NCBI GenBank assembly: GCA_965218285.1
Contig: OZ244616.1
Location: 1,472,133-1,536,132 of the forward strand
Source: Candidatus Poribacteria bacterium
GTDB taxonomy: Bacteria > Poribacteria > WGA-4E > WGA-3G
DNA length: 64,000 nucleotides
Reading direction: 5' to 3'
The translations under genes were made by a program, and so were the position numbers. Below are positions 18,595 to 46,291 of the stretch, one piece after another; position 1 is the stretch's first letter; each line of letters begins with the position of its first letter. The notes below the pieces were generated by a model. It was not told the origin of the DNA, did no database searches, and worked only from the letters and a program-made list of their open reading frames with translations.

Positions 18595-18690
18595 GTAATA
18601 CCAAATTAACTTGATTCAAAGTTTTCTAATAGCGGTTAGCATTGCGAGGCACGGGGACCTCGCACTACAAATCCCGTTAATTGGGTATAA
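18595..18690. mobile_element. MITE family C copy, reverse orientation, with a different central hairpin (GCGAGGCACGGGGACCTCGC).
   Basis: Ends TAATACCAAATTAACTTGATTC ... CCGTTAATTGGGTATAAT are the reverse complement of the family C TIRs. Confidence 0.55.
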
Positions 18691-18699
18691 TGTCTTAAG

Positions 18700-28232: not shown

Positions 28233-29228
28233 ATGCAAATCTTGGTGCTTGACATAGGTTGTTCATATTCGAAAGGTTATCTGTTCAATAATACGTTAGA
28301 CATCATAGCAGAATATAAATTGCCCACCGATATTACATCACCAAGGACGCTTGAGGCATGTGTCCGAGATATTTTGTCTAAGTTTAACAATTACACATAT
28401 CAGGCAATCTTTCCGCTTAGTTTCGGAGAAGGCGTTGTTTATAACAATGTGCTTTATGAACCTACCCATAATCGTGTGCCTTTATCTGAGGATCATTATG
28501 AGTTGACAGGCACACCAACGGATGTCAAGCGGGATATCGGTTCAGCATTTCAATCGCTTCTAACGTTTCCTTCCTATTCTGACGGACCAGCATTACCTGT
28601 TTCAACCTATATCGCATCTCGGCTTGCAAATGCTGAAATAAATACTTGGGATTTGACACACGCTGGCAATAGTGGTATGTTAAACTTTTCTCAGCGACGT
28701 TGGGCTGTTGAACTTCTTAAGAAATATCAATGTGAACCCTTACCTTTTTCTTCTGAATTCATGAGTTCAGCATCAATCATTGGGAACACAGAAAGCGGCG
28801 TTGCGGTCTTTGCTGGCGGGCATGATCATAGTTGTATCTCTGTGTTTAATCCGAAGCCAATTATCATTGCGGGGACATGGGTGGTGATCAGTCAGCCAGA
28901 AATTTCATTCTTACCGAGACAAGATGAGAAATTGGAGGGGATACGTTGGACGATTACAGCAAACGGTAGTTTTCACAAACAGGTCGTCAAAAAAGTTTCC
29001 AATCCAATTACTATTTCTGAAATGAATTACATCATTTCGCTGTATGAGTTGATGCAGGTTCCCGAAAAATCAGAGATATACGTTATCGGTGGATACGGTG
29101 AAAAACTGGCTCCTGAACTGGATAAACTGGACAGTCCTTTCCACTTCAATTCTCCACAAAAGGCAGAGGTGTACCAACATCGGCAAACAGCCAAATATGC
29201 ATTTAGAGCATTGGAACTTCAAACGTGA
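28233..29228 (+). CDS. ASKHA-superfamily sugar kinase-like protein, first gene of the polysaccharide locus.
   Basis: N-terminal phosphate-1 motif ILVLDIGCSYSKGYLF. The later Gly-rich segment VAVFAGGHDHS is read as the adenosine motif. The specificity is unknown. Confidence 0.35.
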   Translation: MQILVLDIGCSYSKGYLFNNTLDIIAEYKLPTDITSPRTLEACVRDILSKFNNYTYQAIFPLSFGEGVVYNNVLYEPTHNRVPLSEDHYELTGTPTDVKRDIGSAFQSLLTFPSYSDGPALPVSTYIASRLANAEINTWDLTHAGNSGMLNFSQRRWAVELLKKYQCEPLPFSSEFMSSASIIGNTESGVAVFAGGHDHSCISVFNPKPIIIAGTWVVISQPEISFLPRQDEKLEGIRWTITANGSFHKQVVKKVSNPITISEMNYIISLYELMQVPEKSEIYVIGGYGEKLAPELDKLDSPFHFNSPQKAEVYQHRQTAKYAFRALELQT

Positions 29229-29626
29229 AGACTGTTTTAATTACCGGTTGTTTTGATCTATTTCATTATGGACATCTAAAATTTTTTGAGGCATCGGCTG
29301 CATGTGGTGATCGCCTCGTGGTCGGTGTTGCTGAGGATGATACGGTTCGACGCGTTAAAGGTGAAAATAGACCTATCTATCCACTTGAACACCGTATCGC
29401 ACTGATAGAAGCCTGTCGGTATGTGGATGCTGTAGAAATCTTTTCTTTGGAGTCGCAGCTGGACTTAGTTGCTCAGGTATCACCCGATATTTGTGTTGAA
29501 GGGGCAGATGGAAATGCAAGACTTCGAGAGATACTCCAAGAACTAGGATTAGAAATTCCTGTCCAAACGGTTTATACAGATTATATCCATACAACAGACA
29601 TTGTCCAGAAGATCCTCAACGAATAG
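29225..29626 (+). CDS. Cytidylyl/adenylyltransferase of the HxGH nucleotidyltransferase family (TagD / RfaE domain II-like).
   Basis: VLITGCFDLFHYGHLKFF contains the (T/H)xGH motif. The 133-aa length fits the family. The start overlaps the upstream gene by 4 bp. Confidence 0.7.
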   Translation: MKTVLITGCFDLFHYGHLKFFEASAACGDRLVVGVAEDDTVRRVKGENRPIYPLEHRIALIEACRYVDAVEIFSLESQLDLVAQVSPDICVEGADGNARLREILQELGLEIPVQTVYTDYIHTTDIVQKILNE

Positions 29627-29739
29627 CGTTGGCATCCTGCAAATTCTCAACAACTGGATTTTTAACTTTTGCTAATCACTAAAATCAACAAGTCAAAATT
29701 CTGGTTATCATTATAGGACATTTGAGAGACTATTAGAAC

Positions 29740-31107
29740 TTGAAGTGGACTCGCGAGCATAACTCGTTCCAAAAGATAGGTAAATTAGTAGAAAAGTTGA
29801 GACATTCTCCAACTCGTTGGGTGATGCTAATTACCTTTACAGGAATGGCGTTAAGTCTCTTATTCCATGTATTAATTCCCAAACATCTTGGCGCAAGTGA
29901 AACAGCGGATGCTTTAATTGCTACATTAAAGGTAGTTCTATTAGTTGATACTGTACTCAGAGAAGGTGCTAAATTTAGTCTTGTTCCGCTATTTATAAAT
30001 GAAGAGCAGTCGAGAAGTCCAACCGAATTTCAACGTTTTACAAGCGGCATCTTAAATTTTTCACTCTGTGTTGGTGTGGTTTTCATGCTGCTAATAGAGG
30101 TGTTTGCAACAGGGATCGCAAACATCTTGTTATCAAATAGTTCAATGGTAGCAAGGGCGGAGATGGCAACCTTTTTGCGGTTGTGTGCGCCTTTAGTCAT
30201 CTTCGGTAGTGGAAGCACAATACTGGGGGCGTTTCTCAATAGTCAGAGACGTTTCAAAACTGTTGCCTTTCGAAACGCGCTTCCACCGGGGATTGCTACT
30301 TTAGTTTTCCTCCTGCTGTCAGGTGCGGAAAACCTCGCAAATTCTGTTGCGATAGCCTACGCATGCGGATTTATGATATACTTCGTATGGTTATCCATCG
30401 GCATGCACCGAACTGGATATCAATACCGAATAACGTGGGTCTCACTTGATGTGCTACGTTCATTGAAGAATACAGTCACACTGCCGACACTCGGTTTCGC
30501 AATCCGACAGATGACTGCTCGTTTGTTTGTTGAAGTGTTCTTAGTAGGGAAACTTGGAAAAGGCGCAATTACACTTTACAACAGTGCCTTTCGGATTTTT
30601 TCTGCGATACAGACGCTTATTGGGATAAGCATTGCAACAACAGGATTGCCTGATATGGCAGCAGATAACGCTGAAGAGAATAAACAAAAGTTGAGACAGA
30701 CACTATTACGCAACTTGCGAACTGTATTATACATCGCAGTCCCAATTACGTTGTTACTTTTATTGGGTTCAACAAAAATGGCGCATATCCTTTATGGAAG
30801 GGGTGAACTTGCTGACCGATCTGTTCAACAGATTGGTCAAATCCTTTTCTGTTTAAGCATTGGTACAGTATTTTCTTGTTTGATTCCTGTTCTAAACGCT
30901 GGACTCTATGCGCAAAAAGCGTATGGACTCATTTTTAGAAACATGGTCACAATGGCGGTTTTAAACTTCGTTGTGGCGTACGGACTTGTGACGGTATGGG
31001 AACTAACAGGAATTGCGATTGCTATTGTGGTTACTGCAGTTCTTGCCGTGGCAAATTTAGTCTTTCTACTTAGAAAAACGGGTGTTTCTCTATATTCAAA
31101 AGGTTGA
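29740..31107 (+). CDS. Polysaccharide flippase of the MOP superfamily (Wzx/MurJ-like) with multiple TM helices.
   Basis: Twelve or more predicted TM helices. The MVK/RPK-like N-terminal region is typical of MurJ/Wzx. It begins with TTG in the ORF track, so the true start may be the downstream M at 29824. Confidence 0.55.
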   Translation: MKWTREHNSFQKIGKLVEKLRHSPTRWVMLITFTGMALSLLFHVLIPKHLGASETADALIATLKVVLLVDTVLREGAKFSLVPLFINEEQSRSPTEFQRFTSGILNFSLCVGVVFMLLIEVFATGIANILLSNSSMVARAEMATFLRLCAPLVIFGSGSTILGAFLNSQRRFKTVAFRNALPPGIATLVFLLLSGAENLANSVAIAYACGFMIYFVWLSIGMHRTGYQYRITWVSLDVLRSLKNTVTLPTLGFAIRQMTARLFVEVFLVGKLGKGAITLYNSAFRIFSAIQTLIGISIATTGLPDMAADNAEENKQKLRQTLLRNLRTVLYIAVPITLLLLLGSTKMAHILYGRGELADRSVQQIGQILFCLSIGTVFSCLIPVLNAGLYAQKAYGLIFRNMVTMAVLNFVVAYGLVTVWELTGIAIAIVVTAVLAVANLVFLLRKTGVSLYSKG

Positions 31108-31278
31108 GAATTTGTTTTTAGGAATAGTAGAGATTAACGTGAGTTCGACTAATATTCTATTGTTGGATTTCGCTTCGCTCTACCGAACCTATGAACTGTT
31201 TTGAAGTTGTTCCGTTTGTAGTCGCGCAATTCACGTACCGTGGGCGTTCAAGGAGTCGTTTTAGATTTAGATGGGAAT

Positions 31279-32316
31279 ATGTTAACTTCAACAAAAAAGG
31301 TCAGTGACTACCAATATCTGATTGTTGGCGGAACAACAAAAGCTGCGACGACATCGTTGTTTGCCTATCTTGCCGACCATCCATCAATTTGTGCTGCATC
31401 CTACAAGGAAACGCGATTCTTTCTTGACACCGATTATCCACTGCCTTCAAAATTTCGTTTCAAAGGCGACGTTGAAGAATATAATTTGCTGTTTTCAGAA
31501 TGTGATGAAAACCAATTCAGACTTGAATCTACGCCAGACTATCTGTATTGTCCAGCTGCGCTTGAGAGAATGGCAAAGTTTCTGCCACACGCAAAGTTAA
31601 TTTTTAGCCTCCGTGAACCGATTTCGCGTTTGATTTCGTGGTACCGATTCGCAAAACAGATTGGAAGATTGCCACAAAACATGAGTTTTGACGGTTATGT
31701 CGAAGAACTCTTCAATGTTGTAGATGCAAAACCACCTGATAGTGGACAAGTTGCCTACTCGCAAAAAGAAAAGACACAACCCACCGAAGAAAATGCAGAC
31801 CAGGAGACAGAGGACACTAAGGATAATTTAGGGACTGAACAATATTTTCAAACGCTCCAACAAGGACGTTACGCTACCTACCTGAAACACTATCTTGAAC
31901 GTTTTGGAAAAGAGCGCATCTACACACTTTTTTATGAAGACCTTGCCGAAAACCCATTGAAAGTATTGAGTGATTTATGTCGTTTTGCTGATATAGAACC
32001 TGATTATTATGAGGATTACACATTTAAAGTTACAAACCGCACCGAGACTATGAGAAGTTCAGATTTTCATCAGAAATATAGAGCATTTAGATTTCAGGTG
32101 CGCCGATGGACACACAACAAACCAATAATTCATAAATCGTTACGTGTAATGCGGCGAGCAATTGAACCCCTCTATCTCCTTTTGAACACCCGCCCTGATG
32201 AAAACGTCTCTGTTTCTGAAAAGGCGCAAAGTCGTTTAATTGACTATTACAAACAAGATGTGGACGATCTAAGAGAATTGATTGGTAAACAACCACCATG
32301 GCAACCTTTTTTATAG
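31279..32316 (+). CDS. PAPS-dependent sulfotransferase (1 of 4 in the locus).
   Basis: 5'-PSB motif IVGGTTKAATTSL and a 3'-PB-like block SLREPISRLISWY. Start taken at the internal ATG; the ORF track starts at a GTG at 31240. Confidence 0.7.
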   Translation: MLTSTKKVSDYQYLIVGGTTKAATTSLFAYLADHPSICAASYKETRFFLDTDYPLPSKFRFKGDVEEYNLLFSECDENQFRLESTPDYLYCPAALERMAKFLPHAKLIFSLREPISRLISWYRFAKQIGRLPQNMSFDGYVEELFNVVDAKPPDSGQVAYSQKEKTQPTEENADQETEDTKDNLGTEQYFQTLQQGRYATYLKHYLERFGKERIYTLFYEDLAENPLKVLSDLCRFADIEPDYYEDYTFKVTNRTETMRSSDFHQKYRAFRFQVRRWTHNKPIIHKSLRVMRRAIEPLYLLLNTRPDENVSVSEKAQSRLIDYYKQDVDDLRELIGKQPPWQPFL

Positions 32317-32325
32317 GTAGACAAC

Positions 32326-33234
32326 TTGATAAAAAAATATCAAACTAAAAACATTCAACTGATGATTGTGGGTTCGCAGAAGTCAGGAACGTCTTCGCTA
32401 TTGCGCTACTTAGCACAGCATCCTGAAATCTACACACATCCCCAACCAGAGATGACTTTTTTTCTTCAAGACCATGAATATACGCGTGGTTATGAATCGG
32501 CGTTCGTAAAATATTTCTCAAAATGTCCACCAGAGAAACAGTTGATCGCCAAAAATGTTATGGTAATGTCTTCACAAGAAATTATGCAACGGATATATGA
32601 ACACAACCCTGAAATACACCTTGTCGTTCTGCTACGCGAGCCTGTGGCGCGCGCCTACTCTGCATACTGGTGGGCACGCCGCAGAGGATGGGAAAATATA
32701 AAATCGTTTGAAGATGCACTTGCAGCGGAAGAAACACGTCTGAATGAAAATTGGTTCAAATGGCGACAGTGTGCATATAAATTCAATAGCAACTACTACC
32801 CACATGTCAAAAACTTGATTACACAGTTCGGAGAAGATCAAGTGCACTGCATCTTAACAGATGAATTGAAAACCGATGCTGAAAAAGTGTGCCAACGTCT
32901 CTTCAACCTAATTGGTGTCAGTGTCGATTTTGAACCGATAGTAGGACAGCGACACAATCAAGCGGCGGTACCACGGTCTGAAAAATTCGGCTTTCTGTTT
33001 ACGCAATTTCTTGCATCTCGTAATCCGCTAAGGCGTGCAATTCGGAAACTTGTCCCAGATGCAGCTGCTTACAAACTCAGAAAAGCGGTTTTGGACTTAA
33101 ACGAGAAACCTTTTACGCCTCCGCCACTGAATCCGAAGACGCGAGAGGAATTAACCCACTATTTTAAACCATATAATGAGCAATTAGCAGAATTATTGGG
33201 ACAAGATCTAACACATTGGCAAACGTCTAATTGA
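32326..33234 (+). CDS. PAPS-dependent sulfotransferase (2 of 4).
   Basis: 5'-PSB motif IVGSQKSGTSSL and 3'-PB block VLLREPVARAYSAYWW. Confidence 0.75.
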   Translation: MIKKYQTKNIQLMIVGSQKSGTSSLLRYLAQHPEIYTHPQPEMTFFLQDHEYTRGYESAFVKYFSKCPPEKQLIAKNVMVMSSQEIMQRIYEHNPEIHLVVLLREPVARAYSAYWWARRRGWENIKSFEDALAAEETRLNENWFKWRQCAYKFNSNYYPHVKNLITQFGEDQVHCILTDELKTDAEKVCQRLFNLIGVSVDFEPIVGQRHNQAAVPRSEKFGFLFTQFLASRNPLRRAIRKLVPDAAAYKLRKAVLDLNEKPFTPPPLNPKTREELTHYFKPYNEQLAELLGQDLTHWQTSN

Positions 33235-33243
33235 CATTGAACG

Positions 33244-34617
33244 TTGATTAACCGCTTAATAATTGATATGGCAATACTTTATTTTCTCACCGGATACTTT
33301 GCTTTTGAAGAGTTTGTGCTGAAGTTTTTACCTGTCAGCGATTCAGTCTATTCTTATTTAAGATTCTTAGGCGAAATTCTCATTTATGCTGCGTTCGGAA
33401 GGCTTGTTTTCCACAAACTATACAAAGGTATTCCGTTTGTCAAAACTCCCATAGATTTGCCGGTGATAGGCTTCTACATTGTGGTTTTCCTGTCAATAGT
33501 GATAAACCGTTCCCCGCTAATTGGAAGTTTATACAATATCCGTCCACTTGCCCGTTACATCGTACTTTTTTACCTTATTGTTAATTCCCCGCTATCCAAA
33601 CAACGGATTACCACCCTTTTGCGGATAATTTTAGGTATCGGTATAATCCAGATCGGGATAGGTTTAATCCAGTGGCATGGCGGTCCTACCTTATATGATT
33701 TATTCTTACCTCGTGCTTCCACACTTGAGGTCGCGGGGTTCACCAAAGAATATAGGTTACTTGAAATCGGCAGGGAAATCGGCAGCATCTATGGCACATT
33801 AGGCGATACCGTGATCTACGGTGTCTTCATGATTGTTATCCTTGTCATCTTTTTATCGCGTATCAAGCGACTTGAGTATCTGAATTTACTTGGTATAGCA
33901 ATACTATTGATGTTTATTGCACGTTCCTATTCACGGGCAGCAACATTTTCTGCGCTGCTTGCTTGTGTTGTGTGGTACTTTTTTCAATACGGATGGAAAA
34001 AAACACTCCGTATATCTCTGATATGCTTATTGATTTTCAGCGTTGTCTTAGCAATACTGAATCCGTTTGAATTGGATTACGTTAATCCCCGTAAAGCCAA
34101 GGTTGGACTTGTGGGTAACGTTACAGGTGTTTTTTCGGGTTCTTATGTGAAGGTTGCACAAAAGCAGCGTCTCGGTGCTCTAATTGGGAATGTTCCCACA
34201 GTCCTTGCGAACAAACCGATTTTAGGGTACGGTGCTGACCAAAACACCACGATTGAAAAACTCAACAAGAGTAAACGTACTTTTTTGCTAAAAATACTTA
34301 GTAAGAAGGGATTTAAAGATGTGTATTGGGTTGCAATTCTCTGTTTCTATGGCGTGTTAGGATTAGGGTTGTTCATGTTCATATTTTACCGACTCTTTAT
34401 GGCATCATTGAAACTTTACAAGCGGACATTAAGTAAATTTACAAAAGAGATGGCGATGGTAATGCTTTGTCTTGTCGTTGTCACTATGTTTCTGCTCTTT
34501 TTCAACAGGACACTTGAATTTCGTGGATACGGTTTCTACTTTTGGATGTGTGCTGGCTTAATGTTCGCAAGTGATAGTTCAATACAAACTTACAAAAGAA
34601 TACGAATAACTCTATGA
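33244..34617 (+). CDS. Polytopic membrane protein, O-antigen ligase / Wzy polymerase-like.
   Basis: Ten or more TM helices with a central periplasmic loop. The position between sulfotransferases and a glycoside hydrolase in a wzx-type locus supports the assignment. Confidence 0.4.
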   Translation: MINRLIIDMAILYFLTGYFAFEEFVLKFLPVSDSVYSYLRFLGEILIYAAFGRLVFHKLYKGIPFVKTPIDLPVIGFYIVVFLSIVINRSPLIGSLYNIRPLARYIVLFYLIVNSPLSKQRITTLLRIILGIGIIQIGIGLIQWHGGPTLYDLFLPRASTLEVAGFTKEYRLLEIGREIGSIYGTLGDTVIYGVFMIVILVIFLSRIKRLEYLNLLGIAILLMFIARSYSRAATFSALLACVVWYFFQYGWKKTLRISLICLLIFSVVLAILNPFELDYVNPRKAKVGLVGNVTGVFSGSYVKVAQKQRLGALIGNVPTVLANKPILGYGADQNTTIEKLNKSKRTFLLKILSKKGFKDVYWVAILCFYGVLGLGLFMFIFYRLFMASLKLYKRTLSKFTKEMAMVMLCLVVVTMFLLFFNRTLEFRGYGFYFWMCAGLMFASDSSIQTYKRIRITL

Positions 34618-37261: not shown

Positions 37262-37298
37262 GGAATTAGACTATTCCAAAGGTTTTTACTTAAAATAC

Positions 37299-38300
37299 AT
37301 GATTGCCCAGCTTAATTCACGCTACATCAAAACGCGACCAACAAAAGCACTAACTCGGCTTATTAGTTATGCCTTCTTTGAAGGACGTCCCGCAACTACA
37401 AAGGGACGATGGATTAACCCGCTTGTATTTTCTTTTCTAAAAAGTGTGTCGTCAAGTAAGAGACAATTCAAACCTGTTGAAAAACCGATCTTTATTTTGG
37501 GGACAGGTCGGAGCGGGACGACAATCCTTGGCATGATCCTCTCAATGCATCAAGATGTCGGCTATCTAAATGAACCGAAGGCGATATGGCACCTTATCCA
37601 TCCACAAGAAGATGTCATCGGTAGTTATAGTAAGGATAAAGGGATGTACCGTCTGACATCTGAAGATGTTACCGATGAAATGTGTCTACGCGCGGAACGG
37701 TTGTTCGGGGCTTATTTAAGCACCACATTTTCGCAACGCGTTGTAGACAAATACCCTGAACTTATTTTTAGAGTTGATTTTGTGCGTGCCCTTTTCCCTG
37801 ATGCACGTTTTATCTTTTTAGTCCGAAATGGATGGGATACATGCCATTCCATTGCTGCCTGGTCCGAACGACTTGGCGTTCAAGTCAATGGTGAAACGCA
37901 TGATTGGTGGGGTGTGAATAACCGTAAATGGCAGCTATTGGTGGAGCAATTAGTTGCCACAGACGTTGACTTGAAAGACATCGTCGAAGATGTGAAAAAT
38001 TGTGATCGGCATCTGGATAGAGCCGTTATTGAATGGATTGTGACAATGCGTGAAGGTCTAAATGTAAAACAAAACTTCCCTGATTGTACCTACACAGTTC
38101 GTTTTGAAGAGTTGACCACAAAGCCTGAGGAAACGCTGTCGCTTCTATGTGAGTTCTGCGAATTGCCGATAGACAAAACTTTTCTGGATTATGCGCGGCA
38201 TACCTTACATCCGGTGCCACCCAGAGTCCCGTTTGATTTACACCCAAAGATCGCACCTATTTTTAATGACACGATGAAGAGATTAGGATATAATAGTTAG
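37299..38300 (+). CDS. PAPS-dependent sulfotransferase (4 of 4).
   Basis: 5'-PSB ILGTGRSGTTIL. 3'-PB LVRNGWDTCHS. Confidence 0.75.
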   Translation: MIAQLNSRYIKTRPTKALTRLISYAFFEGRPATTKGRWINPLVFSFLKSVSSSKRQFKPVEKPIFILGTGRSGTTILGMILSMHQDVGYLNEPKAIWHLIHPQEDVIGSYSKDKGMYRLTSEDVTDEMCLRAERLFGAYLSTTFSQRVVDKYPELIFRVDFVRALFPDARFIFLVRNGWDTCHSIAAWSERLGVQVNGETHDWWGVNNRKWQLLVEQLVATDVDLKDIVEDVKNCDRHLDRAVIEWIVTMREGLNVKQNFPDCTYTVRFEELTTKPEETLSLLCEFCELPIDKTFLDYARHTLHPVPPRVPFDLHPKIAPIFNDTMKRLGYNS

Positions 38301-38370
38301 CGAGTGTGCCTATAACAATTGTTGTTTCTTCGGTAAAAGACACTTTCACTAAAAAAGGAACCATTCTATT

Positions 38371-40464: not shown

Positions 40465-40530
40465 AGTTAAATTAATCATTGAAGATAGCTTGTTAGCAGA
40501 ATTCAAAGTCTGTGAAGGGATAAGAATTTA

Positions 40531-42549
40531 GTGAAAAAAACAATAGAAAACCAGGTTATTCCACGTTCCTATACTCGGCGTGACTTTCTTTCAACGAGCC
40601 TCAAGGTTGGTGCGACTGCCTTTACAACAAGTTTGTTACCACGTCTAAATGCAAAAGCTGAAGGAAAGCATAATGTATTGTTCATGATTGTGGATGATTT
40701 GCGTCCTATGCTTGGTTGCTACGGCATTCCTGATATGCACACCTCAAACATTGACAGTTTAGCTGCACGTGGAACACTCTTCAATCGTGCCTATTGCCAA
40801 TACCCACTTTGTAATCCTTCTCGGGCTTCTATCCTAACAGGGTTGCGTCCGGAGACAACAGGAGTACACGACAATTCCGCAGATTATAAAATCACAGTGC
40901 CAGACGCGGTGGATGTGTACCAACATTTTATGGAACAAGGTTATAAAACATATACTGTAGGAAAAGTGGGGCACTATCCTGCCCCTTTTACTCATGGTCC
41001 ATCTTGGAATGCCCTTGATGTTTCAGACGACGAACTAAGTGATGGTAAAACTGCAAAACAGACAGAGGAACTTTTAGAAAATATTAAAGACCAACAATTT
41101 TTCTTAGCTGTTGGCTTCGACAAACCACATTTACCCTTACATGCCCCTCAAAAATATTTCGAATTATACAATCCAAATCCCTTTATATTACCCCCTACTT
41201 CAAGTTATCCACTTAATTCACCACCTGATGCCCACAACAAGATAGATTTATTTAGACTTTATCGGGATATTCCATCTGGTGACGAGCCTATTTCTGTTGA
41301 GAAAACATTAGAATTGATTCGCGCTTATGCGGCTTCAACAAGTTATATGGATGCACAAGTTGGTCGTGTCCTGCGTCAATTGGACACACTTGGGTTGACT
41401 AATAACACAGTTATTGTTTTCTGTGGTGATCACGGTTTTCATCTTGGTGAGCATGGGACATGGCGGAAAAATACACTTTTTGAGATTGGTGTTCGTTCAC
41501 CTTTACTTATCAGTGTTCCAGGACAACAGCCGTGCCAGACAAATTCCTTGGTAGAATTGGTAGACATCTATCCTACTTTGTGCGACGCATGTGAACTTCC
41601 AATTCCTTCACAGTTAGAAGGTTTAAGCTTAATGCCTTTAGTAGAAGAACCGACCCTCCCTTTGAAAAGTGCTGCTTTCAGTTATCTAACCCGAGCAGGA
41701 TCTAAATCCACTTCAATGCGTACCGAAAGATACCGATACACAGAATGGGGAAGGATAGGTAAATTCGGCAGTGAACTTTACGATTATCTTGATGATCCGA
41801 ATGAGACCGTTAATGTAGTCGATCTTCCAGAAAATGCAGAACTTGTTGAAGATCTAAGTAATCGGCTGCGTGCCGGTTGGAAAGAAGCAATGTCTAATGT
41901 TCAGGGACATATCCCAATTCCACATGCACTTCCTTGGGATATAAATAATGATGGGATTGTGGACATGCAAGACCTAATCCTCGTCTCAAACAGTTTTGAT
42001 GAAGAAACACTTGAATATCCGAAAGCAGATGTGAATAATGATGGAAATATTGATATTATTGATTTGCTCATAATAGCTGCACATCTTGGAGAATCCTGCA
42101 CCGCCTCAGCTCCGTCAACACCTTTATCTGTTTCCCCAAACCATCTTGACAGTATCGCAGAATGGCTCACTGAAGCCTACCAAGCAGATGATGGGTCCGA
42201 TGTCTATCGCCACGGGATTGTCAACTTAGAAGCTCTCTTTAATAACGTAGTCCCACAAAAAACTACTCTTCTACCGAACTTCCCAAATCCATTTAATCCG
42301 GAAACGTGGATACCTTACGACTTGGCACAGGATGCGAATGTGGACATCAAAATATATAATCTCAAGGGAGAAACTATCAGAGAACTCAAAATAGGATTCC
42401 AAAACGCGGGCACTTATCGCACCAAGGAACTGGCAGCATATTGGGATGGACGTAATTCAGCTGGTGAACCTGTCACAAGTGGGGTCTATTTTTATACCCT
42501 CTTTGCTGATCAGGTAAAAGCAACACGCCGAATGGTAATCCGCAAATAA
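40531..42549 (+). CDS. Formylglycine-dependent sulfatase with Tat signal, dockerin-like repeats and a T9SS-like CTD.
   Basis: RRDFLSTSLKVGATAF. CQYPLCNPSRASILTG. DINNDGIVDMQDLILV and DVNNDGNIDIIDLLII. LLPNFPNPFNPETWIPY. Confidence 0.85.
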   Translation: MKKTIENQVIPRSYTRRDFLSTSLKVGATAFTTSLLPRLNAKAEGKHNVLFMIVDDLRPMLGCYGIPDMHTSNIDSLAARGTLFNRAYCQYPLCNPSRASILTGLRPETTGVHDNSADYKITVPDAVDVYQHFMEQGYKTYTVGKVGHYPAPFTHGPSWNALDVSDDELSDGKTAKQTEELLENIKDQQFFLAVGFDKPHLPLHAPQKYFELYNPNPFILPPTSSYPLNSPPDAHNKIDLFRLYRDIPSGDEPISVEKTLELIRAYAASTSYMDAQVGRVLRQLDTLGLTNNTVIVFCGDHGFHLGEHGTWRKNTLFEIGVRSPLLISVPGQQPCQTNSLVELVDIYPTLCDACELPIPSQLEGLSLMPLVEEPTLPLKSAAFSYLTRAGSKSTSMRTERYRYTEWGRIGKFGSELYDYLDDPNETVNVVDLPENAELVEDLSNRLRAGWKEAMSNVQGHIPIPHALPWDINNDGIVDMQDLILVSNSFDEETLEYPKADVNNDGNIDIIDLLIIAAHLGESCTASAPSTPLSVSPNHLDSIAEWLTEAYQADDGSDVYRHGIVNLEALFNNVVPQKTTLLPNFPNPFNPETWIPYDLAQDANVDIKIYNLKGETIRELKIGFQNAGTYRTKELAAYWDGRNSAGEPVTSGVYFYTLFADQVKATRRMVIRK

Positions 42550-42588
42550 ATTAGTCATTTTACATTTATTTCAGGAGAAACTCAACAA

Positions 42589-44217
42589 ATGTCTCTACGC
42601 ATCGTACTTATATTATGCACAATTATTCATTTTTGCTATTTACCTTTTGGCGAAGCCGCATCTCTAATCAACGTCCCACTTAACCCTGATATATCCGACT
42701 TTAATACTGAAACCTACCGCTTTATTCATCGTTTACTTAATAAACGTGTGTTATCCGGTGTAGCGCGCGGTTCGCTGCCGTTTACGCGAAAACAGGTCGC
42801 CTCTTTCCTCATGGATGTCTCTCAAAAACAGGAAAAGGGTGAAATTGAATTGAGCGTCAATGACCAGAAAAGGTTAAATGCATTGTTAGCCTTTTATGCA
42901 GAGGCTGGAACACAAACCGCTCCCAATCGCCGCTTACATTTGATGACACTCACAGACGACTCTACCTATCGCTTCTCCTTCGATTTACGGGCTGCGCAGC
43001 AAGAAATCACACGGTTAGTTGATAACGTGTCCGATATGCCTGCTGATGAAGGGAATATGCACATTACAACACTGTATCCGCATTTATACGGACAGTTTGA
43101 GGAGAGTTTTGCATTCACAACAGATATGGCATACAGATTCTTGTATGGAGACATTTTTGATGATGTTTTCCGTGATGAATCAAAATATAGACAATTAGAG
43201 GGTGAACTCAAAAACAGAACTACTGTCAATAGTTATCTCAAATTCAAAATGCCTTGGTTTGAAATGCAGTTTGGGCAAGACAATCTGCAGTGGGGACCTG
43301 GTTATCACGGTAATCTAATGGTTTCACCAAACCCTACTGCTATTGACATGCTGAAGTTTCAAACGATATTCAAAACCGTATCTTTCACAGCATTCACAGG
43401 TGTTTTAGAAGACAGATCGGAAGACATTAATGAGAAATATATTTCTGGACACAGAATAGAAGGTTATTTCTGGGATAGGTTCGGTTTCGGGATGTCTGAG
43501 GTTGTTGTCTACGGTAACCGTTTTGAACCTGGATATTTGAATCCTGTTAACATCTACCTCATAAACGAGCAAACTATATCGCGGGCTGATAGTCGTGCCC
43601 CAGGTAGTGGAGACAATGTGCTTGCAAGTGTTGATCTGCGCCTCCGTCCCATAGACAATTTTGAGATATATGGTGAGGTGTTGGTTGACGATGGAAATCC
43701 TGCAGCGAGTTTTTATCATTGGGATACGAAGTTCGGTATCCTCGGTGGAATTTATCTTACGGATCCGTTTGGATTACCAGATACTGATTTCCACGTCGAA
43801 TATACTTTTATCAACCAATACACATATACACACGTCAATCCAGTAAACGTTTATAAACATTTTACCTCTGTTATAGGGCACCATATTGGTTCAGATGCGG
43901 ATAATCTATGGATTGAGTTACGCAGACGTTTTACGGATAAACTTGAAACCGTTTTTGGTTATGAATTGGAACGCCACGGTGAAGGGGATATAGATAAAAA
44001 CCATCCCGAAGACGCACCAAAAGATGACGTGTGGACACCACTATCTGGAATCACGGAAAGTGAGCATCGTTTGAGAATCGGGTTTAACTGGGTTGAAATT
44101 GGACATTATTCAATATACGGTGAATGGGCTCGGGTTTGGCGAAGAAACTTAGGAAATCGTCAGGACGTTCATGAAACCGGGAATGAAATTCAAGCAAAGG
44201 CACTTTATCGATTCTAA
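42589..44217 (+). CDS. Outer-membrane capsule-assembly Wzi-like protein.
   Basis: Signal peptide. The N-terminal helical motif ETYRFIHRLLNKRVLSG...FTRKQVASFLMDV is read as the Wzi signature Y..L.RL......TR.E.A. A Tyr/Gly/Phe-rich beta-barrel body follows, ending in a C-terminal aromatic residue (...YRF). It is adjacent to the initiating sugar transferase. Confidence 0.45.
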   Translation: MSLRIVLILCTIIHFCYLPFGEAASLINVPLNPDISDFNTETYRFIHRLLNKRVLSGVARGSLPFTRKQVASFLMDVSQKQEKGEIELSVNDQKRLNALLAFYAEAGTQTAPNRRLHLMTLTDDSTYRFSFDLRAAQQEITRLVDNVSDMPADEGNMHITTLYPHLYGQFEESFAFTTDMAYRFLYGDIFDDVFRDESKYRQLEGELKNRTTVNSYLKFKMPWFEMQFGQDNLQWGPGYHGNLMVSPNPTAIDMLKFQTIFKTVSFTAFTGVLEDRSEDINEKYISGHRIEGYFWDRFGFGMSEVVVYGNRFEPGYLNPVNIYLINEQTISRADSRAPGSGDNVLASVDLRLRPIDNFEIYGEVLVDDGNPAASFYHWDTKFGILGGIYLTDPFGLPDTDFHVEYTFINQYTYTHVNPVNVYKHFTSVIGHHIGSDADNLWIELRRRFTDKLETVFGYELERHGEGDIDKNHPEDAPKDDVWTPLSGITESEHRLRIGFNWVEIGHYSIYGEWARVWRRNLGNRQDVHETGNEIQAKALYRF

Positions 44218-44400
44218 ACTGTTAATCTTGACATTGGAATAACGTTTAAATGAAGATTCATATAGGTCAGAGCATCAAAGAAATTAGCATTTATCATATA
44301 AAATGATTACAATATATAGTGTGGATAAAGGTTTCATCTCCAAATAACGTAAGAAATAGTATTGTCGGAGCAGATACGCCACCATACGGAAGGATTTAAC

Positions 44401-45522
44401 ATGAGGATTCGGGTATTAGGCATTCGAGGACTTCCCGCAACCTATAGCGGTTCCGAGACAGTAATGAGTGAACTTGCCCCACGCTGGGTTGAAGCAGGAC
44501 ATGAAGTTATCATCTACTGCCGAAGCGGTTTTTTCAAGGAAAAACCAGCGGAATGGAAGGGCATAAAGTTAGTCTATTTACCTAGCATTGAACATAAAGT
44601 GTTTAGTACCCTGAGCCACAGTTTTCTCGCTTCTTTGCATGCTTCTTTTTCTCCATCTGATGTGATTTTCGTATGGAATGCTGGCAACGGTCCTTTTGGG
44701 TGGTTTTTTCGTATGACAGGTAAAAAAGCTGTTATCAATGTTGACGGCATGGAATGGCTTCGTCCAAAATGGAAAGGGATTGGTGCAGTCTATTTCAAAT
44801 GGGCAGCAAAAATGGCTACTTCCGCCTTTCCGCTTGTTATAACTGATGCTGAAGAAATGAAACGATTGTATCTTGAGGATTTAGGTGCTGAAACAACATA
44901 TATCGCTTATGGTGCTAACATTGAACCTTCTGAACATCCTGAAGTTATTGAGAATTATGGACTTGAATCGAGAGGGTACTATCTGATTGCCAGTCGTCTT
45001 GTCCCTGATAACAACGCTGACCTGATTTTGGAAGCATTTGTGAACTCAAACAGTAAGAAAAAACTCGCAATAGCAGGTGGGGCAGACTATAAAGGCAACA
45101 AACTTGAAAATGAATTTTTAGATAAATTGAAAAGCATCGCTAATGAAAACGTCATGTTTCTCGGACATATTGACAGTTCCGAACATGTAAAAGAACTTCA
45201 CCATCACTGTTTCGCATACATCCACGGGCATCAATTCGGCGGTATTAATCCTTCCATATTAAAAGCGTTAGGATTTTCTAACTGCATTCTTGCGCTAAAT
45301 ACACCGTTTAACCATGAAGTATTAGAAGGCGGCAATTACGGTGTACTCTTCGACAAAAACCCAGAAGCACTCAAAGCTGAGATTGAGGCATTAGAACAGG
45401 ACCCGGAGAGGGTTGAGAACTTTCGACGACGTGCCACAGAACAGATCCGAAAACGATTCAATTGGGATCACATTGCGGAACAATATATTGAAGTGTTTCA
45501 AAATCTACAAAAGAAAAAGTGA
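44401..45522 (+). CDS. GT4-family glycosyltransferase.
   Basis: GT-B fold. C-terminal E-x7-E-like motif region FAYIHGHQFGGINPSILKALGFSNCILALN. GGAAGGA RBS lies 8 nt upstream of the chosen ATG. Confidence 0.7.
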   Translation: MRIRVLGIRGLPATYSGSETVMSELAPRWVEAGHEVIIYCRSGFFKEKPAEWKGIKLVYLPSIEHKVFSTLSHSFLASLHASFSPSDVIFVWNAGNGPFGWFFRMTGKKAVINVDGMEWLRPKWKGIGAVYFKWAAKMATSAFPLVITDAEEMKRLYLEDLGAETTYIAYGANIEPSEHPEVIENYGLESRGYYLIASRLVPDNNADLILEAFVNSNSKKKLAIAGGADYKGNKLENEFLDKLKSIANENVMFLGHIDSSEHVKELHHHCFAYIHGHQFGGINPSILKALGFSNCILALNTPFNHEVLEGGNYGVLFDKNPEALKAEIEALEQDPERVENFRRRATEQIRKRFNWDHIAEQYIEVFQNLQKKK

Positions 45523-45604
45523 AATCAACGCATCTCATGTAGGATGAAGGACAAAGTCACATTTGCCAACTAAATTGTACGTCTCCAAAACAGACTTCTC
45601 ATAT

Positions 45605-46216
45605 ATGAATGACACAGGAACTCGAACTTCAGTTGAAAGACTTTCCTCCTTTTACGCAAAGCGAGGCAAATATCTATTCGATTTTGTAGCCTCATTTTTC
45701 CTGATTCTGATATTTTCCCCTTTGATGATTTTGATCGCGATACTGATAAAACTGTCTTCGCGTGGACCAGTCTTTTTCTCACATAAGAGAGTAGGATTAA
45801 ATAGTAAACTCTTTGTCATCCTCAAGTTCAGAAGTCTTCATATTGATACACCCTCCTATTCTGAAAAACCCGATTCTACAGAAGATGTCCGCATTACATC
45901 CATAGGGAAATGGATTCGCAAGACAAGTTTAGACGAATTGCCTCAACTTTTTAACGTGATTAAAGGCGAAATGAGTCTCGTCGGTCCACGTCCCGAAATG
46001 CCGTTCCTTGCTGAGAATTACGAGCCTTGGGAAAATCAACGCCATCTTGTACGTCCAGGAATGACTGGATTGTGGCAGTTGAGCCCGCGGCGCCGTGGTT
46101 CAATCCGTGAGGGAATACCTGTTGATTTGGAATACATTGAAAATTTGTCCCTATGGAACGATTTCAAGATACTGCTACGAACTTTCAAAGTTTTTTGGGA
46201 TGACAATACTTACTAA
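45605..46216 (+). CDS. Initiating polyprenyl-phosphate sugar phosphotransferase (bacterial sugar transferase, WbaP/WcaJ C-terminal type).
   Basis: Signature DELPQLFNVIKGEMSLVGPRPE plus a single TM. The ORF-track start is 45563. Confidence 0.8.
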   Translation: MNDTGTRTSVERLSSFYAKRGKYLFDFVASFFLILIFSPLMILIAILIKLSSRGPVFFSHKRVGLNSKLFVILKFRSLHIDTPSYSEKPDSTEDVRITSIGKWIRKTSLDELPQLFNVIKGEMSLVGPRPEMPFLAENYEPWENQRHLVRPGMTGLWQLSPRRRGSIREGIPVDLEYIENLSLWNDFKILLRTFKVFWDDNTY

Positions 46217-46291
46217 TCATCAACGAACATAGGTTCTGGCAGGAGGGTTTCAACCCCGATTTCCAACCAACACAGCAAAAGGTATAATGAA

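Follow-up and report, generated by a model that had tools for sequence, protein, structure and literature searches.

We analysed a window of 64,000 nt from Candidatus Poribacteria, a phylum of sponge symbionts. All 15 open reading frames of the co-directional run listed in the original prediction (28233-46216, + strand) were present, and its gene calls were backed by Pfam, NCBIfam, PDB and fold searches, with a weak FGGY_N match and a Wzy_C match below cut-off (Table 1). The borders given there missed the 5' part, and the conserved locus also comprises 15658-17765 upstream and 46292-46645 downstream. Intergenic gaps across the run ranged from -4 to 144 bp, an operon-like spacing, and GC content was even along the locus (0.40-0.42).

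Table 1. Features of the poribacterial locus and the evidence for each.
Feature	Coordinates	Strand	Evidence
Right-handed beta-helix lipoprotein, conserved 5' boundary	15658..16557	+	Pfam Beta_helix 4e-8, NosD 5e-8
GT4 glycosyltransferase (GT4up)	16563..17765	+	Glycos_transf_1 5e-30, Glyco_transf_4 3e-20
Non-coding stretch, MITE-like repeats and TnpB/OrfB_IS605 remnant, upstream insertion hot spot	17775..18880	.	
Sulfatase C, Tat-like signal, C-G-P-S-R, dockerin, T9SS type A C-terminal domain	19011..21170	+	Sulfatase 1e-45
Lamin-tail-domain (LTD) protein, signal peptide, variable cargo	22213..22824	+	LTD 1e-14
LRR protein, dockerin and C-terminal sorting domain, variable cargo	23023..25323	+	LRR_4 2e-73, Dockerin_1, FlgD_ig
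FG-GAP/ASPIC protein, dockerin and C-terminal sorting domain, variable cargo	25454..28120	+	FG-GAP_3 2e-37, UnbV_ASPIC, Dockerin_1
FGGY-like (ASKHA) kinase	28233..29228	+	FGGY_N 2e-7, weak, barely over Pfam cut-off
Small nucleotidyltransferase, H-Y-G-H, RfaE domain II closest	29225..29626	+	CTP_transf_like 1e-19
MOP-superfamily flippase (MurJ-like)	29740..31107	+	Pfam MurJ 3e-41
Sulfotransferase 1 (Sulfotransfer_1 type, K-A-A-T-T variant)	31240..32316	+	PDB 3rnl 1e-18
Sulfotransferase 2 (Sulfotransfer_1 type)	32326..33234	+	PDB 3rnl 1e-35
Wzy_C-like polytopic membrane protein (polymerase or ligase)	33244..34617	+	Wzy_C 2.5e-6, below Pfam cut-off
Membrane-anchored clan GH-A glycoside hydrolase (GH51/GH79-like fold)	34614..36239	+	PDB, model, Foldseek, motifs
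Sulfotransferase 3 (Sulfotransfer_3 type)	36236..37261	+	Hydrophobic segment at C terminus
Sulfotransferase 4 (Sulfotransfer_3 type)	37299..38300	+	Pfam and motif alignment
Sulfatase A (S1_7-like), Tat-like signal, C-S-P-S-R, dockerin, C-terminal sorting domain	38371..40464	+	PDB 6hhm 2e-81
Sulfatase B, C-N-P-S-R, architecture as Sulfatase A	40531..42549	+	TIGR04183 28.3 bits vs cut-off 23
Wzi-family outer-membrane protein	42589..44217	+	Caps_assemb_Wzi 2.5e-29, 103 bits vs cut-off 30
GT4 glycosyltransferase with DUF1972, Cps2T/WchF rhamnosyltransferase closest	44362..45522	+	NF046071 match
Initiating polyprenyl-phosphate hexose-1-phosphate transferase (short form)	45563..46216	+	Bac_transf 2.5e-63
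DUF983 small membrane or zinc-ribbon protein, conserved 3' end	46292..46645	+	DUF983 6e-11

The gene cluster was kept in at least 80 Poribacteria species; the best 80 genome loci were all from Candidatus Poribacteria (80/80), and homologs of the locus genes were co-directional in every one of them. The full ordered core (MOP flippase, sulfotransferase, sulfotransferase, Wzy-like protein, GH-A hydrolase, sulfotransferase, sulfotransferase, Wzi, GT4, initiating transferase, DUF983) was found in 72 of the 74 species-level genomes with enough flank, and median cross-species identities were 60-84%. At the 3' end, the DUF983 gene occurred in 30 species (58-75% identity), always 3' of the initiating transferase. 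At the 5' end, the beta-helix gene, whose product has a lipobox-like V-G-G-C close to its N terminus, was contiguous with GT4up in relatives L055, L058, L069, L081 and L085-L088, and in L086 and L088 it was preceded by an unrelated Hen1-Pnkp RNA repair pair. GT4up stood immediately beside the flippase in eight poribacterial species.

The flippase has 10 TM-like segments, and its identification as a housekeeping MurJ was rejected (TIGR01695, 127 bits, below the 235.6 cut-off). The Wzy_C-like protein, with 8 TM-like segments, was 69-98% identical over 79 species; the Wzy_C domain is common to O-antigen ligases (WaaL) and protein O-oligosaccharyltransferases. The Wzi-family protein carries a Sec-type signal, and in group 1 systems Wzi is linked to keeping the capsule on the cell. 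The DUF1972 GT4 scored 181 bits against NF046071, under the 500-bit cut-off, and the initiating transferase scored 269 bits against EPS_sugtrans and 233 bits against WcaJ, both under cut-off because it has the C-terminal domain only. The two sugar-activation genes, which overlap by 4 bp, were restricted to a subclade: the FGGY-like kinase occurred in 17 of 80 species, with no match in NCBIfam or PDB and with an NAD-dependent epimerase in its place in relative L003, while the nucleotidyltransferase reached 105 bits against rfaE_dom_II, below the 181-bit cut-off. A PCP/Wzc or OPX/Wza gene for export was found neither in the window nor, in relatives, up to 10 kb away, and the window held no genes for PAPS synthesis or for a formylglycine-generating enzyme.

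The four sulfotransferases (ST1 to ST4) matched Sulfotransfer_1 or Sulfotransfer_3 in Pfam at 1e-13, 3e-10, 1e-30 and 1e-25. The nearest characterised enzymes to ST1 and ST2 were NDST and 3-OST; after 3rnl, PDB matches for ST1 were heparan sulfate N- and 3-O-sulfotransferases (7e-8 to 1e-4), and ST2 matched heparan sulfate 3-O-sulfotransferases at 5e-14 to 1e-5. For ST3 and ST4, the nearest solved structures were polyketide and tyrosine sulfotransferases. The claim that all four carry intact motifs stood for the 3'-PB and fell short for the 5'-PSB of ST1, where K-A-A-T-T misfits the pattern G-x-x-[RK]-[ST]-G-[ST]-[ST]; this variant (G-T-T-K-A-A-T-T) was invariant in 75-76 of 76 species. The 5'-PSB Lys/Arg and the 3'-PB Arg and Ser were invariant or nearly so in all four proteins across 75-80 species, as was a putative catalytic Glu that lines up with the catalytic base in CurM/OLS-type enzymes and TPST. 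None of the four looks dead; catalytically dead enzymes were what would have overturned the original prediction. All four lack a signal peptide, and their N termini are not hydrophobic.

The hydrolase encoded between the two sulfotransferase pairs has a single N-terminal TM helix. It matched GH51 structures in the PDB at 3e-10, and the top Foldseek matches of its AlphaFold model (pLDDT 71, pTM 0.75) were clan GH-A enzymes, GH51 followed by GH44 and GH79, at 12-16% identity. E198 (in G-N-E) and E326 (in T-E-W) were invariant. Among 284 homologs found, the best 120 were all at least 66% identical, and the few named ones were poribacterial.

Both of the secreted sulfatases originally called (A and B) are real, and a third of like architecture (C), 52% identical to each, lies further upstream. 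Sulfatases A and B combine Sulfatase, SGSH_C, Dockerin_1 and FlgD_ig/Por_Secre_tail domains (1e-47 and 6e-40), Sulfatase C also has SGSH_C, Dockerin_1 and Por_Secre_tail (TIGR04183 31.6 bits vs cut-off 23), and Sulfatase A matched human iduronate-2-sulfatase at 1e-63. With their Tat-like R-R-D-F-L signals, they are predicted to be exported formylglycine enzymes of S1_7 type, and we think that their substrates are sulfated glycans outside the cell. The genes run in one direction from ST4 through the sulfatases to Wzi, 39-70 bp apart. In 58 closed ST4-Wzi intervals there were no sulfatases in 11, one in 17, two in 14 and three in 16, and 8 further loci had at least four. Of the 11 sulfatase-free loci, 10 had 68-726 bp between ST4 and Wzi, and the eleventh (L058) had a 4.6-kb insert there, also without a sulfatase. 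The array differed between relative L005 and the window despite core proteins that were 95-98% identical. For 107 of 109 sulfatases the nearest relative was in another species (median 84% identity, vs 62% to same-locus paralogs), their order in the slot was conserved, and the three sampled closest relatives of the Sulfatase A tail (3/3) also came from this slot. Their sequences indicate old paralog lineages, long resident in the slot, with sulfatase genes repeatedly inserted into the locus. The sulfatases are accessory and lie outside the core pathway, as their number varies from 0 to at least four while the core is constant; thus, of the earlier proposal that the cell makes and also trims a multiply sulfated polysaccharide, the glycan pathway held and trimming or remodelling of its own product is optional at best.

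Upstream of the flippase lies a second slot, occupied by LRR, FG-GAP and LTD proteins and by the third sulfatase, which bears the T9SS-type C-terminal tag seen on the other two. The upstream neighbour of the flippase was an LRR homolog in 12 species and an FG-GAP/ASPIC protein in 31, and the LTD protein kept its position in L085, L086 and L124. The dockerin and C-terminal sorting tag, whose presence on sulfatases beside biosynthetic genes had been considered unusual, also occurs on LRR, FG-GAP, WD40 and cohesin proteins and is generic in Poribacteria rather than sulfatase-specific. C-terminal domain (CTD) genes numbered 0.25 and 0.36 per kb in the two slots vs 0 in the core (658 kb) and 0 in the downstream flank (67 kb). 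There are two fixed slots in which genes for dockerin/CTD-tagged surface proteins gather and turn over. The repeats in the non-coding stretch were present in 7 copies each (chance expectation 0 and 0.39), and intact OrfB_IS605 genes lay inside the locus in L001 and L002.

Homologous arrangements were also found outside Poribacteria. Compact, sulfatase-free cassettes of the order flippase-ST-ST-Wzy-GT4-ST-ST occurred on unrelated metagenome contigs, among them a GC-rich, non-poribacterial one (L092, 29-53% identity). ST4 homologs (41-55% identity) adjoined GT4up-like genes on many metagenome contigs, such pairs being present on ~20 non-poribacterial contigs besides L092. The L092 cassette and these pairs lend independent support to a glycan-sulfation cassette.

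We consider it likely (probability about 0.7) that the locus is a phylum-wide poribacterial Wzx/Wzy-type route to a polysulfated cell-surface glycan, with the sulfatases outside its core; most likely it builds a heavily sulfated cell-surface sugar polymer, a product rare in bacteria. The alternative of a lipid or antibiotic tailoring cluster is excluded by the initiating transferase, two GT4s, MOP flippase, Wzy_C-like protein and Wzi, and the locus contains no PKS or NRPS. Our reading is built on protein families, motif integrity, topology signals, gene order and conservation, from which we infer substrate, order of steps and product. Points that weigh against it are the lack of nearby PCP and OPX genes, the Wzy_C match under cut-off, the closeness of ST3 and ST4 to polyketide and tyrosine sulfotransferases, and the lack of PAPS-synthesis and formylglycine-generating genes in the window. 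The short Bac_transf enzyme would load hexose-1-phosphate onto polyprenyl phosphate at the inner membrane face, and the two GT4s, one rhamnosyltransferase-like, would extend the chain. The four cytoplasmic PAPS-type enzymes, a heparan-sulfate-ST-like Sulfotransfer_1 pair and a Sulfotransfer_3 pair of which one has a C-terminal membrane-seeking segment, could then place up to four O-sulfates on the lipid-linked unit, the stage at which sulfation is expected because PAPS is cytoplasmic only. With three glycosyl-transferring enzymes for four sulfotransferases, either sulfation would be unusually dense or there are other acceptors. The sulfated unit would be flipped outward by the MOP flippase and polymerised or ligated by the Wzy_C-like protein, the periplasm-facing, membrane-anchored hydrolase would trim or free chains in a PslG-like manner, and Wzi would retain the product at the outer membrane. 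The product may be a capsule, an O-antigen-like glycan or a protein-linked glycan. The topology fits cytoplasmic sulfation (no sulfotransferase signal peptide) and desulfation outside (sulfatase R-R-D-F-L signals). Poribacteria reportedly encode assimilatory sulfate reduction (PMC8546597).

The role of the sulfatases can be read in several ways. That they are hitch-hikers which digest sulfated glycans of the sponge matrix or of algae, the slot being a recombination or insertion hot spot, is a real possibility at clearly less than even odds: copy number turns over fast from 0 to at least four, IS605 and MITE remnants lie in and beside the slots, the secretion/display tag is generic, and PMC8546597 describes poribacterial carbohydrate- and sulfate-ester-degrading gene sets aimed at host matrix; yet a single sulfatase family occupies one slot phylum-wide in ancient, order-conserved lineages with tight operon-like spacing, and the slot has no transporter or catabolic partner genes. 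Slightly less probable is that the in-locus sulfatases and the hydrolase act specifically on the locus's own exported glycan, either tuning sulfation as the heparan sulfate Sulf enzymes do or clearing and recycling it as AlgL/PslG-type enzymes do. The co-directional, closely spaced genes, the filled slot in 47 of 58 closed intervals, with paralog lineages that are old and keep their order, the slot-resident relatives of the Sulfatase A tail, the invariant hydrolase already in the operon, and the endo action on polymers described for P18_S1_7 (6HHM; PMC9096561), the closest sulfatase of solved structure, all speak for such self-editing, whereas the four sulfotransferases stay invariant in the 11 species in which ST4 adjoins Wzi without an in-slot sulfatase, array content varies at 95-98% core identity, cassettes outside Poribacteria have no sulfatase, and non-enzymatic LRR and FG-GAP proteins bear the identical tag type in the second slot. 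The sulfatase substrate may be a glycan of the cell itself or of the host, or a structure common to both; the genes are most probably placed here so that surface-displayed proteins are expressed together with the surface glycan.

In our estimation it is unlikely that the Wzy_C-like protein instead transfers a short sulfated oligosaccharide onto lipid A-core, giving a sulfated LPS, or onto surface proteins by PglL-type O-glycosylation. The single initiating transferase with only two glycosyltransferases, the weak match to a domain shared by WaaL and O-oligosaccharyltransferases, the lack of Wza and Wzc nearby, and LpxI, LpxA and LpxC genes (lipid A) a few kb downstream in relatives would suit such a product, but the Wzi family (PF14052) is tied to group 1 capsule retention, a chain-trimming hydrolase is better suited to a polymer, and OPX is unlinked in the synechan system too (PMC8205485). 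It is highly improbable that the sulfatase-fold proteins add sulfate, as VNG1056C and VNG1057C of a Halobacterium N-glycosylation cluster reportedly do. In that glycan-assembly cluster, sugar sulfation requires sulfatase-fold proteins, which also suffice for it, and one of them is structurally closest to 6HHM, the top match here too (PMC11980604); however, the poribacterial locus already has four intact canonical PAPS-type sulfotransferases, export signals and surface tag put its sulfatases where no activated sulfate donor is known, and 11 species lack them in the slot.

The preferred reading, a route to a polysulfated surface glycan, can be set beside several known systems. Group 1 capsule loci (E. 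coli K30 / Klebsiella; wzi-wza-wzb-wzc with wzx/wzy) share Wzi, a WbaP/WcaJ-type initiating transferase, glycosyltransferases, a flippase and a Wzy-type protein; the poribacterial locus, in contrast, has no wza, wzb or wzc nearby, a short, single-domain initiating transferase, and sulfotransferases, a hydrolase and sulfatases. PslG of the Pseudomonas psl operon is a single-pass, N-terminally anchored, periplasm-facing GH-A type hydrolase encoded with its biosynthetic genes, a location, anchor and clan type that the poribacterial protein shares, although the latter is a predicted hydrolase of another GH family (GH51, GH44 and GH79 best, 12-16% identity). In animal heparan/dermatan sulfate synthesis, PAPS-dependent sulfotransferases likewise act inside the cell, ST1 and ST2 are near NDST/3-OST and the sulfatases are iduronate-2-sulfatase-like, but the assembly machinery is unrelated and the resemblance is one of logic and enzyme families only.

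In Porphyromonas gingivalis, where T9SS cargo is anchored to anionic LPS, surface proteins likewise carry type A C-terminal domains (TIGR04183), and a flippase, a polymerase and a ligase produce the anionic lipid-linked glycan (PMC8545088); the poribacterial sulfatases differ in their Tat-like rather than Sec signals, and genomes of Poribacteria yielded no structural genes of a Por/T9SS system (PMC3909097). The comparison with sulfated EPS loci recommended in the original prediction yielded two that are similar in part, neither of them identical. Pontiella sulfatireligans F21, a marine sulfatase-rich heterotroph that reportedly both degrades and makes sulfated polysaccharide, has a PF13469 sulfotransferase in a GT-rich putative sulfated glycosaminoglycan cluster (PMC7356697), but that cluster has one sulfotransferase, many GT2/GT4 enzymes, no embedded sulfatases and no ST-ST-Wzy-GH-ST-ST order. 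In Synechocystis sp. PCC 6803, the xss cluster for synechan (PMC8205485) resembles the poribacterial locus as a Wzx/Wzy-type extracellular polysaccharide cluster with its own sulfotransferases, an OPX gene elsewhere and sulfation presumed on the lipid-linked repeat unit. Whereas xss has 2 sulfotransferases, 8 glycosyltransferases, a PCP and three regulators on a megaplasmid, the poribacterial locus has 4 sulfotransferases and 3 glycosyl-transferring enzymes, lacks a PCP and regulators, has a GH-A hydrolase, Wzi and secreted-sulfatase slots in addition, and is chromosomal and conserved across another phylum.

The co-directional run tabulated below comprises 15 open reading frames with intergenic gaps of -4 to 144 bp and encodes, in order, an FGGY-type kinase, a nucleotidyltransferase, a MOP flippase, two sulfotransferases (ST1 and ST2), a Wzy_C-like protein, a glycoside hydrolase, two further sulfotransferases (ST3 and ST4), two sulfatases, a Wzi protein, a GT4 glycosyltransferase and an initiating transferase (Bac_transf). 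Pfam agreed with this gene list, which the original prediction had read as a sulfated-polysaccharide locus, with weak matches for the kinase and Wzy_C. The locus had been taken to begin with the kinase-containing run at 28233, and this boundary had to be moved upstream to 15658. Where a GT4 is the upstream neighbor of the flippase in relatives, a beta-helix lipoprotein gene and that GT4 abut the flippase, which identifies the 17.8-28.2 kb segment as inserted DNA within the locus. The region 5' of the beta-helix gene in relatives holds an unrelated Hen1-Pnkp pair.

Coordinates of features in the window (5'-PSB and 3'-PB, PAPS-binding motifs; Glu, motif carrying the conserved glutamate).
Feature	Coordinates	Strand	Details
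WD40 beta-propeller protein	569-1756	-	window left edge
ECF-type sigma factor	3829-4608	-	window left edge
DNA methyltransferase	7496-8446	+	type II N6/N4; PADLOC MTase_II 3e-125
Dispersed intergenic repeats	11315-11724, 17775-18571, 22072, 49347-49426, 59358-59437		apparent family
Adjacent cytoplasmic ORFs	11891-13300, 13310-15322	+	469 and 670 aa
Upstream GT4	16563-17765
Insertion inside locus	17.8-28.2 kb		third sulfatase, LTD, LRR, FG-GAP
TnpB/OrfB_IS605 zinc-ribbon remnant	~18700-18880	+	CSECGYKNENLSLEDRHWICPECGSH
Sulfatase C	19011-21170		PF00884 157 bits; C-G-P-S-R
Co-directional run	28233-46216	+	15 ORFs
Locus core	15658-17765, 29740-38300, 42589-46645	+	three segments
ST1	31240-32316	+	51.4 bits; 5'-PSB K-A-A-T-T; 3'-PB R-E-P-I-S-R-L-I-S; Glu K-E-T-R-F-F
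ST2	32326-33234	+	40.5 bits; 5'-PSB K-S-G-T-S; 3'-PB R-E-P-V-A-R-A-Y-S; Glu P-E-M-T-F-F
ST3	36236-37261	+	107.8 bits; 5'-PSB R-S-G-T-T; 3'-PB R-D-P-R-D-V-L-L-S; Glu G-E-L-H-F-F
ST4	37299-38300	+	91.6 bits; 5'-PSB R-S-G-T-T; 3'-PB R-N-G-W-D-T-C-H-S; Glu N-E-P-K
Sulfatase A	38371-40464	+	PF00884 163 bits; C-S-P-S-R
Sulfatase B	40531-42549	+	PF00884 138 bits; C-N-P-S-R
SDR	46679-47209	-	176 aa
TIR-domain protein	53175-54545	-	PADLOC matches to TIR effectors Aga TIR, bSEFIR, ThsB-like
ORF without family	54868-56148	-	426 aa; adjoins TIR-domain gene

Homologs of ST3 comprised >120 cluster representatives at 61-95% identity, and those with names were all Candidatus Poribacteria. A scan of species-representative genomes returned 364 relatives; the best 80 of the 364 loci all came from poribacterial MAGs or SAGs, several with isolate names that we take to be sponge- or coral-derived. 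When the window proteins were compared to these 80 loci by tblastn, the recurring order was flippase, ST1, ST2, Wzy, GH, ST3, ST4, variable sulfatases, Wzi, GT4, initiating transferase and DUF983. This order was complete in 72 of the 74 loci with enough flank, homologs were co-directional in 80/80, and median protein identities across loci were 60-84%; independent gene calls on ENA contigs gave the same order. Uniform GC content and phylum-wide synteny ruled out recent horizontal acquisition of the locus. Downstream of it, the window SDR may be truncated, since its counterparts in three relatives (L165, L166 and L167) measure 249-250 aa. These relatives carry TonB and the lipid A genes LpxI, LpxA and LpxC/FabZ within a few kb downstream, and in the window TonB is followed instead by a lactonase and an enoyl-CoA hydratase.

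All four sulfotransferases scored above the Pfam cut-offs of 22-27 bits, ST1 and ST2 as Sulfotransfer_1 and ST3 and ST4 as Sulfotransfer_3 types. The canonical 5'-PSB pattern, originally reported for all four, held for ST2, ST3 and ST4 and failed for ST1, in which Gly is replaced by Ala; this Ala-Ala variant is itself invariant across poribacterial species. The 5'-PSB Lys/Arg and Thr/Ser and the 3'-PB Arg and Ser (Arg-x7-Ser) are invariant or nearly so in each enzyme across 75-80 poribacterial species, as is a Glu after the 5'-PSB, which aligns to P-E-L-H-L-L of PDB 4gox and G-E-E-T-R of TPST1 and is the putative catalytic base. With the 5'-PSB and 3'-PB residues and this putative base conserved in all four proteins, none of them looks catalytically dead, and that objection fails. 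The nearest relatives of ST1 and ST2 were an uncharacterized bacterial enzyme (3rnl) and then heparan sulfate N- and 3-O-sulfotransferases, and those of ST3 and ST4 were CurM/OLS-type and tyrosylprotein enzymes, with weak similarity to NoeE; NCBIfam matched neither ST1 nor ST2, and its matches for ST3 and ST4 were weak and NoeE-like. None of the four carries a signal peptide, and ST3 has a C-terminal hydrophobic segment. The window encodes no APS kinase for PAPS supply; PAPS would come from the assimilatory sulfate reduction that Poribacteria are reported to encode (PMC8546597). The four enzymes might find use in the enzymatic sulfation of glycans.

The kinase, whose Pfam match to the FGGY type was weak, had no PDB or NCBIfam match that would name its sugar. 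The nucleotidyltransferase (133 aa, H-x-G-H) was nearest in NCBIfam to RfaE domain II, below the equivalog cut-off, and the GT4 with DUF1972 was nearest to the Cps2T/WchF rhamnosyltransferase, again below the equivalog cut-off. The flippase (Pfam MurJ, 3e-41; 10 TM-like segments) reached 127 bits against a cut-off of 235.6 for the housekeeping-MurJ equivalog, and this shortfall together with its fixed place in the locus ruled out a housekeeping MurJ. An initiating polyprenyl-phosphate sugar-phosphate transferase (Bac_transf, 2.5e-63) accompanies two GT4s. The Wzy_C-like protein is polytopic and scored 27.8 bits versus a Pfam cut-off of 31.7; it could be either a Wzy polymerase or a WaaL/PglL-type ligase. 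Pfam also supported the Wzi-family protein encoded in the run.

The hydrolase carries a single N-terminal TM helix and matched GH51 structures (3e-10) over its N-terminal half only, with its G-N-E aligned to the G-N-E of GH51. Its predicted model (pLDDT 71, pTM 0.75) was closest to GH51, then GH44 and GH79, and Foldseek against GH51 gave 2e-18 with TM-scores of 0.56-0.60. These matches place the protein in clan GH-A, as a predicted (beta/alpha)8 barrel whose acid/base and nucleophile residues would both be Glu; the putative catalytic glutamates, E198 and E326, do not vary among 25 orthologs. Membership in GH51 itself was not supported, with identities of 13-15% and 47 bits for the ArfA model against a cut-off of 625, and GH44, GH79 and GH86 scored nearly equal to GH51.

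We read the run as a Wzx/Wzy-type pathway; the families, motifs, topology and conservation of its proteins are observed, and its substrates, step order and product are inferred. Synthesis would be initiated on polyprenyl phosphate and extended by the two GT4s, after which up to four O-sulfations would take place in the cytoplasm, because PAPS is there; the lipid-linked unit would then be flipped and polymerized or ligated, the anchored hydrolase would trim the glycan, and Wzi would retain the product. The sulfotransferase genes sit inside the Wzx/Wzy cluster, as in synechan-type (xss) sulfated EPS clusters. A lipid or antibiotic tailoring cluster, the alternative raised with the original prediction, was ruled out by gene content. 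Against the Wzx/Wzy-type reading stand the weak Wzy_C match and sulfotransferases that outnumber the sugars; Poribacteria are uncultured, and we found no compositional data on a product in the literature on Poribacteria or sponge symbonts and sulfation. A further point against it is that the whole 64 kb of the window, and a range of 10 kb in relatives, contained no PCP (Wzc) or OPX (Wza) gene. They may be encoded elsewhere in the genome, by analogy with synechan, whose OPX gene is likewise unlinked to its cluster (PMC8205485). Synechan has been expressed in a Synechococcus host (PMC13125312).

The prediction of two secreted formylglycine sulfatases was borne out by Pfam and extended by a third of the same architecture, sulfatase C. 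All three combine a Tat-like T-R-R-D-F-L signal, C-x-P-S-R, SGSH_C, a type I dockerin and a FlgD_ig/Por_Secre_tail C-terminal sorting domain (CTD). The best PDB matches were 6hhm (P18_S1_7; 2e-81) and human iduronate-2-sulfatase (1e-63), which makes the sulfatases S1_7-like in sequence under the subfamily labels of PMC9096561. 6HHM is an endo-2-sulfo-xylose ulvan sulfatase (PMC9096561), and a view of S1_7 enzymes as exo-acting only was dropped on the same source. No formylglycine-generating enzyme (FGE or anSME) is encoded within the window. Sulfatases B and C passed TIGR04183, the sorting-domain model of T9SS type A cargo (28.3 and 31.6 bits; cut-off 23), and the tail of sulfatase A passed Pfam FlgD_ig only (35.2 versus a cut-off of 27). 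The dockerin and CTD tail is a generic poribacterial tag, also carried by WD40, cohesin, Big_1 and EF-hand proteins. Cohesin (PF00963), dockerin and CTD are combined in poribacterial proteins P0282, P0286, P0292, P0303 and P0310, none of them in the window; these five could act as docking partners of the sulfatases, LRR and FG-GAP proteins that bear dockerins. Por structural genes for T9SS were not found in poribacterial single-cell genomes (Kamke et al. 2014, PMC3909097).

Tagged genes are concentrated at two variable slots. In slot 1, the ST4-Wzi interval, 0, 1, 2 and 3 sulfatases occurred in 11, 17, 14 and 16 species, respectively (58 closed intervals), and at least four in 8 further loci. 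Of the 11 sulfatase-free loci, ten have ST4 and Wzi separated by 68-726 bp, and the eleventh (L058) has a 4.6-kb insert with no sulfatase. Slot 1 content differed even where core proteins were 95-98% identical (L005). At slot 2, on the 5' side of the flippase, the adjoining gene encoded an FG-GAP protein in 31 species, an LRR protein in 12 and a GT4 in 8; in 17 species the kinase/nucleotidyltransferase pair took this place. The density of CTD motifs was 0.36/kb in slot 1 and 0.25/kb in slot 2, versus zero in 658 kb of core and 67 kb of downstream flank; within the window none lay outside 19-42.5 kb. All 109 in-locus sulfatase ORFs extracted had C-x-P-S-R, and 97 had all three tags. The nearest relative was in a different species for 107/109 (median 84% identity, versus ~62% for same-locus paralogs), which ruled out recent tandem duplication, and the order of sulfatase lineages is conserved between loci; the sulfatases are therefore old residents subject to differential loss.

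This ancient residence, with the operon-like placement, argues for a link between the sulfatases and the product of the locus. That the sulfatases are dispensable, turn over fast, bear a generic tag and have same-tagged non-enzymatic neighbors argues instead for the slots as a hub of surface-protein genes. Sulfatase-fold proteins can be read as sulfotransferases (PMC11980604), which is unlikely here. By analogy with Porphyromonas, in which anionic LPS (A-LPS) anchors T9SS cargo (PMC8545088), the polysulfated glycan might serve as a cell-surface anchor or scaffold for dockerin/CTD proteins, and the same glycan could mimic sponge matrix so that the symbiont goes uneaten; we consider this a long shot. 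If true, such anchoring would explain the pile-up of CTD-tagged sulfatase, LRR, FG-GAP and LTD genes at two fixed slots, and the handling of CTD proteins in Poribacteria, for which no Por secretion genes were found (PMC3909097).

Mobile-element remnants were also seen at slot 2. The dispersed repeats include a 29-nt unit, CCCCAGCRGGGCGAYAGGTGTATAGAAAA (7 copies versus 0 expected), mostly paired ~51 bp apart, and a motif, AAGTTTGGACAATTT (7 copies versus 0.39 expected), in convergent pairs resembling MITE terminal inverted repeats. Two MITE-like elements of the AAGTTTGGACAATTT type lie directly 3' of the upstream GT4, and the TnpB remnant lies in an ORF-free 1.2-kb gap. Two close relatives (L001 and L002) carry intact OrfB_IS605 between ST1 and ST2 and between the GT4 and the initiating transferase. 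Elsewhere in the window, the adjacent cytoplasmic ORFs matched no Pfam, NCBIfam or PADLOC family, with only a faint C-terminal winged-helix/AbiEi-like signal, and are absent at this position in relatives, which have other genes there; the pair may be a mobile or defense insertion. A lack of TM segments and family matches, together with the different genes in relatives, excluded them as Wzc/Wza. The TIR-domain gene and the adjoining ORF may form a defense pair, and the ORFs neighboring the methyltransferase hold no obvious restriction partner. WD40 beta-propellers, one of which lies at the left edge, are eukaryote-like repeat proteins typical of sponge symbionts. Scanning the window for Rfam families and tRNAs gave no match, and promoter and terminator scans gave chance-level, uninformative counts.

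Related cassettes occur outside the phylum. With the upstream GT4 as query, a scan of metagenomes recovered a GC-rich, non-poribacterial contig (L092; GC 0.52-0.65) that encodes at 1592-9523 an outer-membrane protein, flippase, two sulfotransferases, Wzy-like protein, GT4 and two sulfotransferases at 29-53% identity, and another non-poribacterial contig (L089) with five or six sulfotransferases and two GT4s at 1938-11197. An ST4-like gene was paired with a gene resembling the upstream GT4 in ~20 further metagenome contigs. No sulfatase or CTD-tagged protein was present in the 76 loci of that scan without poribacteria-level identity, and the four-sulfotransferase cassette is therefore an older unit, to which the GH, Wzi and cargo slots are poribacterial additions.

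Sulfated polysaccharides are considered uncommon in bacteria. We found no prior description of the locus in the literature on Poribacteria or sponge symbionts with sulfotransferases, sulfated (exo)polysaccharide or sulfatase-dockerin, with subscription literature covered in part. Poribacteria are usually discussed as degraders of the host sulfated matrix, and here they apparently have the means to build their own sulfated coat, a route by which host mimicry or phagocytosis evasion could be tested; the locus is also a lead on what handles TIGR04183-tagged proteins in the phylum. Its nearest known counterparts are the synechan xss cluster (PMC8205485) and a putative Pontiella cluster (PMC7356697). 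The locus would contribute a second architecture, one that sulfates more heavily, with four sulfotransferases acting on a very short repeat. It would also show this architecture to be vertically inherited and a core trait throughout a sponge-symbiont phylum, and would connect it with the related compact cassettes of unrelated, uncultured bacteria.
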